Shown: positions 40,921 through 46,511, numbered from the stretch's first letter. The stretch is DNA of 64,000 nucleotides from Bacteroidota bacterium (GCA_027622375.1 JAQCAB010000003.1:22797-86796); one strand, 5' to 3'. Numbers and translations are program-made. The notes: a model not told the origin generated them from the letters alone.

Positions 40921-40945
40921 TAAAAAGCACCATTTAAGGTGCTTT
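40921..40945 (-). terminator. Rho-independent terminator closing the Mot/FliF-FliG operon
   Basis: Minus strand AAAGCACC-TTAAAT-GGTGCTTT followed by TTAGTTTT, about 26 nt after the fusion gene's stop. Confidence 0.75.
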
Positions 40946-40971
40946 AAAAGTTTAAAAAATTATTAAACCAG

Positions 40972-42966
40972 TTATTCTTTTTGTTCACCTTCAGTTTGTG
41001 TAGTTGCTTCTTCTTCAACTTCTGGTTTTGTTTCTTCTTGAACTGCAGCTAAAGTTCCCAATCCACTTTTTACATAAGTTCGAATCATTTTTGTAATTCT
41101 TCTTCTTGCTTTTAATTCATCATCAGGTGATAAAGATTTTAATGAAGCCATTCTATCTTCAAGTAGTGCTCTTGATTTAGATGGAAGCAGAGATAAAATT
41201 CTTTCATTAATTTCAGGAGGAGCATTTTTTAATGCCATTGATAATTCTTCACCCGAAATATCACGCGCAAGCTGTCGCAACATTCTATCATCCAATTTAC
41301 CAATAGCTTGAAACGCTACTCGTTGATTCGATATTTCACGGAATAAATCTAAGTTGATTGTTTTAATAAAATCAACTATTGTGGATTCAGTTGTTTCATC
41401 TAAATTATCAAAAATATCAAGTAGCATATCGCTACCTTGTACTTGTACATTATTTATAACAGGAATTGATGATGCTTTTGTTGCGAGTTGACTCGCTACA
41501 GATTTATATGTGTCTGAATCCATTCTTCTAAGTTTACCAAGTTCTAGTGCAACTTCTCCCTGTTGCATTGATGGTAAATTTTTCAACATTTGACTTGCAA
41601 TTGGGGTTGAAAGTTGCGAAAGAATTATTGCAATAATTCCAGGTGTTTCTTCTTTCATCATCATATACAATTGAGAATCAGTTAATTTTTCTAAAAAGGT
41701 AAAAGGATTTTTAGCTGTATTTCTAGACTCTTCAAATCGTTTGACCATAATTTGTGTGTCAAAATATTGAAGTGCTTGTTTTTTATCATCAAGTGTTTTG
41801 CTGATTGGCTCCAGTGTTATTTCTTGAATTTTTTTTACTTCCTCAAGTGAAAAATAATCTTTCATCACTTTCAACATACTTCCACCAAGTTGCTCGGTAA
41901 CCATTGCGAGTTTTTCTTTTTGAGCTGGATCTCCCAACATTTCTTTTATAACATTTGATGCAATGCTTGATTCACCTGCACAAGTTGCTAATAATTTTGA
42001 ACGCATTTTTTCAACTTCAAAACCATTTGTCATCTCTTGAACTGATTCTTCAAAACTTGGTCCCCTTTTTTCAATATTTTCTGCAAGTGCTGGAACTTCA
42101 AATTGTTGTTGCGGTAAATATTCTATTTTTGGTTCTTTATTTTTCAGTCTTGTCAAGAACATATTTATTAATAATAATGCAATCACGAGTCCTAAAAAGA
42201 TTATTAAAAACCATTTTATGAGTGGATCAAATGAATCTCTAGCTTGTTGCTGTTGATCCTGAAGTTTTAAACGCTCTTCATCAATTTTTGTTTTTGTTTC
42301 GTTTAATTGATTTGTGAGTTCTGTAATTTTATTTTGTTGCTCTGATGTAATTTTTTCTTGAGTTTCTTTAGTTGATTTTTCAAGTTCCTCGATACGTTTT
42401 ACATTTTCAATTCTAATTTGTTCCTCAATTACTTTTTTCTCTTGCTCTAAATTTCCAATTTTTTTTAAAGCTTCTTGATTTTGTTGTTCAGATTTCGAAA
42501 GTTGTTCAGTCGGGAATACCATATCTTGCATTTCAATTTTATCTCCTCTGTCATTGTCAAGTTTAGCGGTATAAAATGCAATACTTTCTAATAAATCACG
42601 ATCTTCTTTTGATCTATTTTTTTCTACAACCAGTTTAATAGTTATATTTTCAATTGTAGGCCTTTTACTTACTTCAGTTTTTGATGCATCAAATCTTGAT
42701 GGTTCAAAACCTTGTGCACCTGGCAATCCTAAATCGCGAATATCTTGTGATTCTTCAGTTTGTGCAACTTCAGTTTCAGCAAAAGTAACTTGAGCGCTAA
42801 CAATATATTTTAAATCTGTAAAATATTTTTTTATTTCATTTGATATTCTAGCTTCGAGTTCTCGTTCCAACTTTTTTTTATCTGCTTCTAAATCTGCAGA
42901 AATTAAATTTGTAGATAAACAAAAAGTCCCAAAAAAGATAAAAATTAAATAAATTGATTTTTTCAT
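40972..42966 (-). CDS. FliF(ring domain + C-terminal helix)-FliG fusion protein with signal peptide, coiled coil and one TM
   Basis: aa25-152 resemble FliF RBM3 (LERELEARI...LPG...ITIKLVV...RGDKIEM..F); aa155-245 coiled coil; TM at 249-271; aa321-344 FliF C-helix-like; aa347-402 FliG_N-like; PFTFL...EETPG FliG_M; LDDR..R...R.I....L.MALK.A...ARRRI..MIR FliG_C. Confidence 0.85.
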   Translation of the reverse strand: MKKSIYLIFIFFGTFCLSTNLISADLEADKKKLERELEARISNEIKKYFTDLKYIVSAQVTFAETEVAQTEESQDIRDLGLPGAQGFEPSRFDASKTEVSKRPTIENITIKLVVEKNRSKEDRDLLESIAFYTAKLDNDRGDKIEMQDMVFPTEQLSKSEQQNQEALKKIGNLEQEKKVIEEQIRIENVKRIEELEKSTKETQEKITSEQQNKITELTNQLNETKTKIDEERLKLQDQQQQARDSFDPLIKWFLIIFLGLVIALLLINMFLTRLKNKEPKIEYLPQQQFEVPALAENIEKRGPSFEESVQEMTNGFEVEKMRSKLLATCAGESSIASNVIKEMLGDPAQKEKLAMVTEQLGGSMLKVMKDYFSLEEVKKIQEITLEPISKTLDDKKQALQYFDTQIMVKRFEESRNTAKNPFTFLEKLTDSQLYMMMKEETPGIIAIILSQLSTPIASQMLKNLPSMQQGEVALELGKLRRMDSDTYKSVASQLATKASSIPVINNVQVQGSDMLLDIFDNLDETTESTIVDFIKTINLDLFREISNQRVAFQAIGKLDDRMLRQLARDISGEELSMALKNAPPEINERILSLLPSKSRALLEDRMASLKSLSPDDELKARRRITKMIRTYVKSGLGTLAAVQEETKPEVEEEATTQTEGEQKE

Positions 42967-43628
42967 GTTGCTCGACTGTAATAAATCCTAATTACAACTC
43001 TTCTGTTTTCATTTCGTGCAAAATCAGTATACATTCCTGTAGCAGGATCCGATTCTCTATTAACTGGTCGAGAATCAGCAAAACCAGTTGAAGATAATCT
43101 TTGACCTTCAATTAATACAGTATCTTCCAAAAAATGTAAAACCTCAGTTGCTCGCGCTGATGAGAGTTCCCAATTTGAGAAAAATTTTTCTTTACTACGT
43201 AATCTTGTATCATCAGTGTGTCCTTCTACAGCAAGATAAGCATTCCTCGCTTTAACAAAATATGCAAGTATTTGGCCAATTCGATAAATTGCATCATAAC
43301 CTTCTAGTTTTAAAATTGCTTCACCTGGTTGAAATAGCATACTACTTCCAAAACGTAACTCAATTCCCTCTTCAGTCATCACAACTGAAATTTGTCCTTT
43401 AAGTGCGGGAGAACTTTCAATTGTTTGTTTTAATTCATCTGAAAGTGTAGACAAACTAACTTGGTTTTTATTTTTAGAAGATGCAAAACTATCTAATTTA
43501 GATTGATCGGGAACAGACATTCCAAGTAACAAAACGAATGCAGCAAGTAAAGCAGTAAGCAAATCGATATAACTAACTTGCCAATGCTTTTCTCCCTCTT
43601 CGTGATGTATTTTATAATGTTTAGACAT
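42963..43628 (-). CDS. motB: MotB/PomB-family stator subunit with OmpA-like peptidoglycan-binding domain
   Basis: WQVSYIDLLTALLAAFVLLLGMS TM with the essential Asp (D22); VEGHTDD, NWELSSARA, NRRV. Confidence 0.9.
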   Translation of the reverse strand: MSKHYKIHHEEGEKHWQVSYIDLLTALLAAFVLLLGMSVPDQSKLDSFASSKNKNQVSLSTLSDELKQTIESSPALKGQISVVMTEEGIELRFGSSMLFQPGEAILKLEGYDAIYRIGQILAYFVKARNAYLAVEGHTDDTRLRSKEKFFSNWELSSARATEVLHFLEDTVLIEGQRLSSTGFADSRPVNRESDPATGMYTDFARNENRRVVIRIYYSRAT

Positions 43629-45300: not shown

Positions 45301-46409
45301 AATACAAAATTTACTTGTGCACCAATATTAACACCACCCAAATCCCATTTCTCATTTGCAACATTTGTTGGTATATAATGTAAGTATCCTGTGAATCCTA
45401 AATTTTTACTCATCCTAAATGTTACACCTAAATTAAAAACAGATCTCAAATTATTTTTAAATGAAACATCAAATCCACCACCAACATCTAATAAAATAAT
45501 TCCGCTTCCAAGTTGATCTGTTGAGTATAAATCAAATGAAAAACCTGGTTGCAATAAGAGTCCATAAAAATTTGATGTGTTTGCAACTATACGTGAGTCA
45601 ATGTGAAATTTAACAAAATCGATGATTGTTGCAACTTCATTAAATCTATATCCAACTGAAATTAAACCAGTTGATTCTCCAGCAGATGAATCACCAATTG
45701 CTAATGTACCACCTTGAAAAGAAACTGTTAAGTAATTTTCAATGTATCCTGTTTTTGAACGCATGATATGTTGTTGGGCAGCAATATCTTCACCATAATC
45801 ATAAGGCAACACACGATAAATTGCTTTGTATTCTTTTGACCAAAGAGTTATTCCATCCAAATCATTTATATCAATATAAAAAATAAGTTGATTTGGGGTT
45901 ATCATTACATCGCAAGTAACAACGCCATCTATTTTTTTTGTTTTGCCATATTTTTTTAAATCATCACCAGTTAAAACATTTCTAACTTGAACTGAACTAT
46001 CAGTTGCGCGAACCATTACTGCTTTTAAATCTTGGGCAGAAACAAATGCAAAACGTTTCTCACGAGCAAATGCAGTTTTTATTTTTTTTTCGAAATAAGT
46101 AGTTAAAAATTGTATTTCTGCAAAACGAAGTTCTTCTTTAAATGGCCAACGAATTTTTATTTTGTAGATTAAAAGGTTTCTGACATAGGGAGAAACATCT
46201 TTTGATTCTATTGGTAATAATGATAAAGCAGAATCAGATGCAATATCAAATTTTGGAAAAACTTCTAATAGTTGTGTGGTCCGAATATCAGGTAAACCTC
46301 GGCGGGTTTCAGAAACCTCACTATCTTGGGAATAAATTGAAGTAGTTAAAAAAAGAACAGATATGAATAGCTTTTCAACAATTTTTTTATTAGTAAGTTG
46401 TCTTTTCAA
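45297..46409 (-). CDS. Predicted outer-membrane protein: periplasmic alpha/beta (CsgG/TolB-N-like) domain plus small C-terminal beta-barrel
   Basis: Signal peptide (..SIYS/Q); KRFAFVS...LKKYGKTKKIDGVVTCDV...LWSKEY; about 8 amphipathic strands ending GGVNIGAQVNFVL. Confidence 0.65.
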   Translation of the reverse strand: MKRQLTNKKIVEKLFISVLFLTTSIYSQDSEVSETRRGLPDIRTTQLLEVFPKFDIASDSALSLLPIESKDVSPYVRNLLIYKIKIRWPFKEELRFAEIQFLTTYFEKKIKTAFAREKRFAFVSAQDLKAVMVRATDSSVQVRNVLTGDDLKKYGKTKKIDGVVTCDVMITPNQLIFYIDINDLDGITLWSKEYKAIYRVLPYDYGEDIAAQQHIMRSKTGYIENYLTVSFQGGTLAIGDSSAGESTGLISVGYRFNEVATIIDFVKFHIDSRIVANTSNFYGLLLQPGFSFDLYSTDQLGSGIILLDVGGGFDVSFKNNLRSVFNLGVTFRMSKNLGFTGYLHYIPTNVANEKWDLGGVNIGAQVNFVL

Positions 46410-46483
46410 ATTTTCTTTTATGTTATATGAAATTATAGTATCTAGTTAATGTAAACACTCTTTTAATTCTTATAACTCATCAT

Positions 46484-46511
46484 AATATATAACAAATTTT
46501 GTTTAAGTCAA
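46484..46511 (-). promoter_or_regulatory. Predicted sigma70-type promoter TTGACT-N16-TATATT for the motor-like operon
   Basis: Minus strand TTGACT taaacaaaatttgtta TATATT in the 190-bp gap between secG and the operon. Confidence 0.5.

Follow-up and report, generated by a model that had tools for sequence, protein, structure and literature searches.

To our knowledge, the rotor proteins of the flagellar motor are assumed not to occur outside flagella, and we know of no FliG- or FliF-like partner used by the ion-driven motors ExbBD, TolQR, GldLM/PorLM, AglRQS or ZorAB. Elaborate flagellar motors carry additional periplasmic and outer-membrane scaffolds, such as FlgO/FlgP/FlgT and MotX/MotY in Vibrio and PflA/PflB in Campylobacter. 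Rotor proteins have been reported in 11% of non-motile species, which raised the question of what half a motor is for (PMC12199754). A natural fusion of a shortened FliF to a FliG-like part was described in the Chlamydiaceae, which are non-flagellated bacteria (Bergeron 2016, PMC4768692); it is about 330 amino acids (aa) long, with a signal sequence, two transmembrane (TM) segments, RBM2 and one RBM-like domain, and its FliG portion resembles the M domain only. It was discussed in connection with the injectisome, and the passages available from that report describe no MotAB, tetratricopeptide repeat (TPR) or barrel partners. Engineered FliF-FliG fusions of Salmonella and Vibrio assemble into rings (PMC6079021, PMC10941966, PMC11481574), which makes a fused rotor subunit physically plausible. 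A survey of MotAB proteins separates flagellar from generic stators and lists the plug and the OmpA domain among the traits of flagellar-type B subunits but not of the Exb/Tol-type group; no FliG-fusion cassette is mentioned in the portions of the survey available (PMC12505986). Here, a cassette of five genes is described from a 64,000-nucleotide (nt) stretch of DNA of Bacteroidota bacterium GCA_027622375.1 (JAQCAB010000003.1:22797-86796), referred to below as the window, whose positions serve as coordinates. The cassette (40972-46409, minus strand) encodes a secreted barrel protein, an exported TPR protein, a MotA/MotB stator pair and a fusion of a FliF-like RBM3 domain to FliG, and it is rather likely to specify a machine that works independently of a flagellum. 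A search of the literature outside subscription journals and supplements returned no description of such a cassette.

The last gene of the cassette, gene 5 (40972-42966, minus strand), encodes a FliF(RBM3)-TM-FliG fusion of 664 aa. Pfam profiles matched FliG_M (2.8e-14; 53.5 bits, cut-off 25) and FliG_C (3e-16; 60.1 bits, cut-off 23.3), and a search of PDB sequences aligned the protein with T. maritima FliG (1lkv) at 5.6e-27. The FliG_N profile of Pfam scored 19.7 bits, under its cut-off of 25, and its match falls on the M region. An AlphaFold2 (AF2) model of gene 5, built on 35 sequences, has a mean pLDDT of 64 and a pTM of 0.28, and it runs from a hydrophobic helix at the N-terminus through an alpha-beta-beta-alpha-beta domain (aa 25-148), a coiled coil and a membrane helix to a cytoplasmic part that is helical over aa 303-633. 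The FliG-like portion of the cytoplasmic part, comprising M and C and a putative N (aa 345-637; 41056-41934, minus strand), was placed from Pfam, the PDB match and structure alignment. In VIA-align, aa 345-644 matched FliG residues 3-331 with Z 14.1-14.8, at a large root-mean-square deviation (rmsd) and with a different arrangement of the domains. When the model was searched with Foldseek, full-length FliG (3hjl) was returned first at 3.3e-9, followed by FliF MS-ring entries at 4.6e-4 to 3.4e-3 (6sd1_A, 9e-4).

The periplasmic portion of the fusion is predicted, from the model and from structure alignment, to contain an RBM3-like ring-building domain (aa 25-152; 42511-42894, minus strand). Residues 20-152 aligned with Salmonella FliF 228-438, which comprises RBM3 and the collar, with Z 12.0-12.8, about 100 residues being superposed at an rmsd of 1.9-2.2 A; among unrelated folds the next was OsmC at Z 8.7, and the injectisome RBM PrgK D2 reached Z 8.1. 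The beta-collar insertion of FliF is not present in the model of this domain, and its position is occupied by a low-confidence loop of 37 aa (aa 65-101). Residues D78, LPG 81-83 and GF 86-87 of the loop, together with RGD 140-142, are invariant in the fusion family. No match to RBM1/RBM2 (YscJ_FliF, PF01514) was found on gene 5 or in the genome. A periplasmic coiled coil (aa 158-243) precedes the membrane-spanning helix (aa 248-274; 42145-42225, minus strand), which is a hydrophobic stretch in the alignment and a helix in the model (modelled helices H158-202, H215-243 and H248-274). The fusion of the window and its closest relative, P0002, carry about 60 extra aa in this coiled coil (42240-42490, aa ~160-243) when judged against the other 33 aligned family members (alignment columns ~183-283), and the length of the periplasmic stalk therefore varies within the fusion family.

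Compared with flagellar FliF, the FliF portion of the cassette protein is thus reduced to RBM3, has a 37-aa loop for the beta-collar and is covalently joined to FliG. The engineered fusions contain full-length FliF and act in a complete flagellar system, whereas the cassette protein is natural and minimal, lacking RBM1, RBM2 and the collar. From the chlamydial fusion, as far as the available description of that protein goes and by description only, it is set apart by its length of 664 aa, by RBM3 with a FliG part of predicted full length and by the stator encoded beside it. The original prediction, made from the DNA alone, was of a rotor-like protein joining an MS-ring domain to FliG, with structure prediction proposed as a check; both a FliG fold (Z 14-15) and a FliF RBM3 fold (Z 12-12.8) were seen in the model, and the claim has to be narrowed in that the MS-ring part is RBM3 only, without RBM1 and RBM2, and is not supported by sequence statistics.

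Genes 3 (43632-44471, minus strand; 279 aa) and 4 (42963-43628, minus strand; 221 aa) encode a flagellar-type MotA/PomA-like stator A subunit and a MotB-like stator B subunit, respectively. Gene 3 matched MotA_ExbB (PF01618) in Pfam at 7.9e-19 and, in NCBIfam, MotP at 1.4e-38 and PomA at 4.5e-36, both under their equivalog cut-offs. All ten of its matches among PDB sequences were flagellar MotA or PomA chains (best 3.8e-24), and no ExbB or TolQ chain was among them at E <= 0.01. Gene 4 matched MotB_plug (4.8e-10) and OmpA (4.3e-13) in Pfam, with NCBIfam matches to MotD, MotS and MotB under cut-off. Its channel aspartate lies in the context YIDLLTA, which is invariant across 19 aligned family members. 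The two proteins, predicted from sequence, have every feature of a peptidoglycan-anchored, plug-gated, ion-conducting stator of flagellar type, which directly supports the stator with an ion-binding aspartate and a peptidoglycan-binding domain that had been proposed for this locus.

The charges of MotA that meet FliG are R90 and E98 in E. coli numbering (PMC12505986). At the flagellar RR..E segment the cassette MotA reads TQTHDIESLEE, in which the arginine is absent and the glutamate is retained; these positions were mapped through alignments with the MotA proteins of B. subtilis and C. sporogenes, not through the E. coli sequence. On the rotor side, the torque-helix segment of the fusion reads LPSK597-S-R599-A-L-L-E603-D604-R605, with K597 invariant and R599, E603, D604 and R605 each conserved in at least 90% of 35 sequences. 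The torque helix of T. maritima FliG reads SKRAAALLKDEL, and the fusion has gained an arginine at two places relative to it. The loss of an arginine in MotA and the gain of arginine in the torque helix fit a private, re-paired charge interface. Such an interface would keep the cassette stator off the flagellar rotor in hosts that carry both.

Two proteins of the outer envelope are encoded ahead of the stator. The AF2 model of gene 1 (45297-46409, minus strand; 370 aa, TTG start), with a mean pLDDT of 63, begins with a signal-like helix, continues with an alpha/beta domain placed in the periplasm (~aa 65-220) and ends in a barrel (aa 218-370) that has eight strands between aa 226 and 369. In VIA-align, aa 218-370 matched PagL with Z 16.4 (rmsd 2.6, 131 residues aligned), the OprF barrel with 15.9, OmpA with 15.3 and OmpW with 15.2. 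The model thus directly supports a predicted eight-stranded barrel of outer-membrane type at the end of gene 1. An outer-membrane barrel had also been named in the original prediction; the call is a model-based one (Z 15-16.5 to known eight-stranded barrels), with no Pfam or NCBIfam family found for gene 1. Among 28 relatives of gene 1 that were found, several of them on contigs equal in length to contigs that carry relatives of the fusion, the Pfam search returned a single FlgT_M match, at E 0.09, in one member. For the N-terminal domain, clusters of CsgG/LpoB type came up at 0.89-0.91 and are treated as leads.

Gene 2 (44473-45300, minus strand; 275 aa) matched TPR_2 at 1.1e-08, as well as TPR_1 and TPR_11, in Pfam. 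Family alignments give it a signal-like N-terminus, a short conserved N-terminal motif, a variable linker of low complexity and C-terminal TPRs, in keeping with the exported TPR protein expected at this position. A lipobox-like cysteine occurs in some members only of the gene 2 family of the window, for example in locus L064. In complex predictions with the TPR protein as partner, the RBM domain of the fusion and the periplasmic domain of gene 1 gave ipSAE values of 0.28 and 0.18 against a mark of 0.32, which speaks neither for nor against binding.

We consider it rather likely that the operon as a whole is a functional, flagellum-independent rotor-stator envelope machine. The fusion would oligomerise through RBM3 into a membrane ring that carries a ring of FliG on its cytoplasmic face, and peptidoglycan-anchored MotA5B2 units would dock on the FliG ring through their private charge interface. 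Ion flow would then turn the ring, or at least load it mechanically, and the periplasmic ring and coiled-coil stalk would pass the work on to the TPR and barrel proteins at the outer membrane. Candidate outputs are upkeep of the envelope, moving or gating a component of the outer membrane, and motility on surfaces. The cassette resembles the flagellar motor's core in its MotA/MotB pair with channel aspartate, plug and OmpA domain, in the M and C folds and a putative N fold of FliG with a charged torque helix and in an RBM3 next to a membrane helix. It differs from the flagellar motor in a MotA without the R90-type arginine, in an EHPQ motif that is not kept, in two outer-envelope partners within the operon and in its own side of the FliG tree. 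With ExbBD-TonB, TolQR-TolA-Pal, GldLM/PorLM, AglRQS and ZorAB it shares an ion-driven inner-membrane motor that is independent of the flagellum and encoded with partners reaching the outer membrane; unlike those 5:2 motors, it has a B subunit of flagellar type with a plug and an OmpA domain.

The same parts could also act without rotation, as a transducer of Ton/Tol type in which single or few copies of the fusion behave like TonB or TolA, are loaded by the 5:2 motor through the FliG-like domain and pull through the coiled coil and RBM on the TPR and barrel proteins. This arrangement would be suited by the long coiled coil (aa 158-243) that separates the RBM domain from the membrane helix in the periplasm, as would outer-membrane partners in the operon, which are also a feature of Tol-Pal, a host without FliM/N to stabilise a C-ring, a beta-collar reduced to a 37-aa loop and a MotA without the canonical arginine. 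However, the N-terminal domain best fits the ring-forming RBM3 of FliF (Z 12-12.8, with other folds at 8.7 or less), MotB keeps the plug and OmpA domain that the portions of the MotAB survey available give as flagellar-type traits (PMC12505986), and the PDB matches of gene 3 were flagellar in ten of ten cases, with no ExbB or TolQ at E <= 0.01. In addition, MotA_ExbB matches were found at three places in the genome, gene 3 and two others, and the two other paralogues could serve Ton/Tol functions. A transducer of this kind is regarded as unlikely, and a rotor-stator machine remains the preferred explanation.

The host genome (G000) comprises 1.73 Mb in 48 contigs, with completeness 100 and contamination 0.42. 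FHIPEP/FlhA, FliP, Flagellin_N, YscJ_FliF and FliMN_C each gave no match in the whole genome, in profile searches whose controls matched in 4 of 14 reference genomes and which did not cover rod and hook families. Unlike a flagellar motor, the cassette therefore belongs to a host in which an export gate, a filament and FliM/N were not found, and the absence of flagellar genes first noted within the window extends to the whole genome for these five families. FliMN_C was likewise without a match in the congener G531. Only one FliG_C match occurs genome-wide, and it is gene 5. The EHPQR motif of FliG binds FliM; the loss of EHPQ from the fusion fits the absence of FliM/N. No T2SSE-family ATPase is present in either genome of the genus (G000 and G531), so that the host encodes neither a type IV pilus ATPase nor one for type II secretion. 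GldM_4th had no match in the host genome, with a control that matched in no reference genome. That the five genes might be relocated parts of a flagellum whose other genes lie elsewhere was ruled out, as none of the five flagellar families searched was found in the genome and flagellated relatives own a separate fliF, fliG and motA.

The distribution of the cassette among relatives was then compared with that of the flagellum. In a class-wide sample, 36 of 201 genomes matched the fusion at E <= 1e-10, and full-length matches were confined to four (G000, G084, G075 and G168), all of one GTDB family; the other 32 matches were open frames of 320-374 aa, representing canonical FliGs. A phylum-wide sample matched the gene 1 profile in 7 of 401 genomes, all in the same GTDB family. 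Within that family, FliMN_C was present in 21 of 41 genomes. The cassette occurred together with FliMN_C in 10 genomes and without it in 8, while 11 genomes had FliMN_C and no cassette and 12 had neither; because related genomes are not independent samples, no statistics were drawn from these counts. The cassette comes and goes independently of flagella in this family. It is not confined to the non-flagellated taxa in which a survey of gene neighbourhoods had been proposed, since 10 of the 18 carriers in the family have FliMN_C. The flagellated carriers possess, besides the cassette, a canonical fliF (open frames of 513-537 aa) adjoining fliG, a canonical FliG of about 341 aa (open frame) in addition to the fusion, and a second MotA at 23-25% identity. 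Most of the other family members searched have genomes of 2.0-4.8 Mb, compared with only 1.73 Mb for the host, and retention of the cassette in this reduced genome argues for its use.

A synteny scan using one genome per species gave 20 loci, all from uncultured metagenome-assembled genomes labelled Bacteroidota or Ignavibacteria. The order barrel-TPR-MotA-MotB-fusion was complete in 13 loci and present in one more (L061) in which gene 1 is cut by a contig end; the other six were cut by contig ends, and no locus had another order. Conserved linkage of the five genes, which had been set as a test, was thus seen in 14 of 20 loci with none to the contrary, and since the flanking genes differ between sub-clades, the five genes form a conserved unit. 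Between the host and L045, which share 74-86% amino-acid identity, dN/dS was 0.076-0.164 over all five genes, at a dS of ~1.0-1.4 that is near saturation; judged by these ratios, all five cassette genes are under purifying selection. A reading of the cassette as a relic or set of pseudogenes was ruled out by dN/dS and synteny.

The family of fusions extends well beyond this lineage. When 1.84 billion cluster representatives were searched exhaustively with HMMER, 3025 matched at E <= 1e-3 and 707 at E <= 1e-10. Among the best 150 clusters at 50% identity, 109 proteins are at least 500 aa long and of fusion type, and 94 of the 109 show the pattern xPG ... [RK]GD ... membrane helix. FliG_M and FliG_C were carried by 10 of 10 sampled long clusters, and YscJ_FliF_C by three of the ten at E <= 0.01, in one case above the Pfam cut-off. 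The LPG and RGD motifs are kept in an alignment of 18 long proteins of fusion type. Leads from a protein atlas, taken as leads only, place long FliG_C clusters in Balneolota, Bdellovibrionota, Bacteroidota, Pseudomonadota, Elusimicrobiota and Myxococcota.

One gammaproteobacterial branch includes named carriers, Thalassolituus (with the complete genome of T. hydrocarboniclasticus) and Bermanella. This branch was followed in 53 metagenome loci, of which the 29 longer than 9 kb were analysed. In 25 of the 29, a 355-aa secreted protein is followed by a TPR lipoprotein of about 230 aa, the fusion, MotA and MotB; three of the remainder begin at the fusion, and one (L122) has no gene for the 355-aa protein at that place. 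MotA and MotB of this branch cluster with those of the window in blastp, and the TPR protein was confirmed by Pfam. The gene order (L071-L119) differs from that of the window, with the fusion before the MotA-MotB stator genes, and the TPR protein has a lipobox-like cysteine after its signal sequence. The 355-aa protein gave sub-threshold Pfam matches to FlgO in 13 of 15 members (best 1.2e-4), to FlgT_M in 7 of 15 and to LpoB in 5 of 15, and its consensus ends in a C-terminal phenylalanine. L122 is the most distant metagenome locus, at 35% identity to the query alignment, and has the order TPR-fusion-MotA-MotB immediately after rpsL/rpsG/fusA-like genes, which were identified by eye on the basis of N-terminal sequences. 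Judged from this locus, some lineages may encode the barrel-type partner at another place or do without it.

The presence of the cassette in flagellated bacteria raises the alternative that it is an accessory of the flagellum, serving for example as an alternative rotor, a scaffold for assembly or a disk module in the outer membrane, and that it stays behind as a functionless relic in hosts that have lost flagella. Ten of the 18 family carriers are flagellated, the genera of the named gammaproteobacterial carriers are known as flagellated, and the 355-aa partner has the sub-threshold similarity to FlgO and FlgT_M described above. TPR or Sel1-type periplasmic proteins and domains of FlgO/FlgT type also stand beside the stator-rotor pair in flagellar scaffolds; the similarity of the cassette to them lies under every Pfam cut-off, and those scaffolds surround the rod and the L/P rings, which are not among the parts of the cassette. 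Against such a role, 8 of the 18 carriers have no FliMN_C, among them G000, G084 and G168, the three searched for FlhA as well, which was absent from each. The flagellum-less host keeps all five genes intact, with dN/dS of 0.08-0.16, in a genome of only 1.73 Mb; no flagellar genes stand beside the cassette in the 20 and 29 loci examined; and the FliG parts fall on their own side of the tree. Taken together, an accessory or a relic is very unlikely, and an independent rotor-stator machine is preferred to either.

Phylogenetic trees were computed for FliG parts and for MotA. The FliG tree was made with 40 long proteins (the first 8 and 32 drawn at random from those of at least 550 aa) and three gammaproteobacterial fusions, after removal of P0073, a 321-aa N-terminal fragment, and of L011, P0178 and P0212, which formed long branches. 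Among its 89 FliG parts, a single branch (SH-aLRT 100) splits 44 canonical FliGs, among them the ones from the host's own class and family, from 43 fusions and two short proteins (P0152 and P0216) that are probably truncated fusions. Within the fusion side, a long branch leads to the group of the window. In the MotA tree (38 rows, with every second gammaproteobacterial row used), the cassette MotAs of Bacteroidota, those of the gammaproteobacterial branch and the flagellar MotAs of the family form separate groups with support of 98, 96 and 100, each of them distant from the two other MotA_ExbB paralogues of the host, which sit on a long branch of their own. We take the module to be an old line, paralogous to the flagellar rotor-stator core and distinct from it, and not a leftover of a flagellum of the host.

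A number of observations weigh against the cassette being a functional rotor-stator machine of the kind outlined above. Ring formation, rotation and contact with the TPR or barrel proteins are inferred; the geared motor without a type III export gate of the original prediction is upheld as to its parts, its folds and a genome without FlhA and FliP, and the passage of torque to the outer membrane stays inferred. By sequence, the FliF homology of the N-terminal domain of gene 5 is no more than suggestive, and the claim is drawn from the AF2 model (mean pLDDT 64, pTM 0.28). The Pfam profile YscJ_FliF_C matched gene 5 at E 0.091 (13.6 bits, cut-off 23.8) and was sub-threshold in 10 of 12 family members (best 4.4e-4), a 12-sequence profile of fusion aa 1-165 found no FliF among PDB sequences and returned a chance 41-aa peptide at E 0.14, and hhalign of the domain with five canonical FliFs of the same family gave a probability of 0.2% over 28 columns around RGD. 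All NCBIfam flagellar equivalog scores of the cassette proteins are far under cut-off, as for MotP on gene 3 (132.5 bits, cut-off 394) and TIGR00207 fliG on gene 5 (96 bits, cut-off 226.7), and for this reason the proteins are regarded as relatives of flagellar proteins, not as orthologues. With the arginine at the position of E. coli R90 missing from MotA, the interface may work differently, or may not work as a torque interface; at the position of SEHPQ in T. maritima FliG, the fusion of the window reads EETPG and the family consensus DEPPG, and the EHPQ motif is not kept. Gene 1 and the 355-aa gammaproteobacterial protein share a W.KEY motif, and their hhalign comparison over 142 columns (probability 10.9%, E 0.0028) points weakly to homology between the two; the order among the three MotA groups, including whether the cassette clades are sisters, is not settled by the tree. 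Two genomes of the family may carry damaged copies, which could be pseudogenes or assembly errors: the fusion of G487 (C56:14441-15559) has two in-frame TGA codons, and the only gene 1 match in G540 (C5:599659-599940) is a fragment of 107 aa. Finally, one sequencing run contains the entire stretch and may be where it came from, and four public runs whose word shares were small, two of RNA and two of DNA, yielded matching pieces of 18-56 nt only.

At the locus itself, the five open reading frames (ORFs) are co-oriented and tightly packed. ATGA overlaps at the gene 1/2 and gene 4/5 junctions were read directly from the sequence, and ORF coordinates give gaps of 1 nt and 3 nt at the remaining two, in agreement with the original prediction. 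Two signals had been proposed to flank the operon. A sigma-70-like match, TTGACT-16-TATATT (46484-46511, minus strand; 10 of 12 matches), is present in the 190-nt gap between secG and gene 1; promoter-like sites in the region number 29, compared with 29.9 +/- 6.2 in shuffles, and because they do not exceed chance, this match carries no weight beyond its position. A terminator-like hairpin with a T-run (40924-40945, minus strand; 8 pairs, 4 of them GC) lies 27 nt past the stop of gene 5, in a region with 4 such sites compared with 2.1 +/- 1.6 in shuffles. Placement between housekeeping genes was confirmed, the upstream neighbour being SecG (PF03840, 7.1e-17) and the downstream neighbour a GCV_T folate-binding, YgfZ-like protein (9.4e-10). 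Five co-oriented genes 3' of the cassette (34000-40911 in the window; loci L045-L054) recur in 8 to 11 of 21 loci. This block consists of the YgfZ-like gene, a LOG/lysine-decarboxylase-like gene and three further genes of about 280-300 aa, of which only the first two are named, and it is exchanged for different genes in the remaining sub-clades. The G+C content of the window is about 29%. Its GC skew is positive over the first ~18 kb and negative from there to about 46 kb; a short positive stretch (46-50 kb) follows, after which it is negative again. The change near 46 kb falls where the genes switch strand, at secG/tdk.

The surroundings of the cassette also bear on a defence function. If the cassette were a MotAB-based system for sensing or for defence against phage, Zorya-like or otherwise, the FliG-like protein would be a signalling partner of the stator, and ZorAB is indeed a MotAB-like motor used in defence. 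In PADLOC, the cassette MotB matched ZorB models (best 5e-22). The four other cassette proteins had no match there, and no ZorA, ZorC or ZorD was found on any of the five; the ZorB match reflects general MotB similarity. In Pfam, no nuclease or other effector domain was found in the cassette proteins, and the neighbours are housekeeping genes, with a position that is stable within sub-clades. Identity with Zorya was ruled out, as only MotB matches ZorB models, and a defence or sensor role more broadly is extremely unlikely beside the rotor-stator machine favoured here.

As a wider proposal, held tentatively and with more doubt than confidence, the cassette may stand for a distinct and widespread class of rotary envelope nanomachine, in which a bare FliG/MS-ring rotor is driven by MotAB and acts on outer-membrane partners without a secretion system or an axial rod, and which may predate or parallel the union of the motor with type III export. 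Descent from a rotor-stator module that existed before or beside that union is possible because all sampled canonical FliGs have the FliG parts of the fusions as their sister side; as the FliG tree is unrooted, this sister relationship is one reading among others. With such a descent, the cassette would be a surviving half of a motor that has its own function. The cassette offers a concrete, testable object for the question of what half a motor does, being conserved, under selection, found with or without flagella and present in several phyla, with at least one named, cultured genus (Thalassolituus) among its carriers. If the machine does not rotate, FliG and RBM3 would have been reused for another task. 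If it does rotate, it would be the smallest known FliG-based motor and a simple target for structural work, a new route by which ion-motive energy reaches the outer membrane, and one observation on how the flagellum arose step by step.

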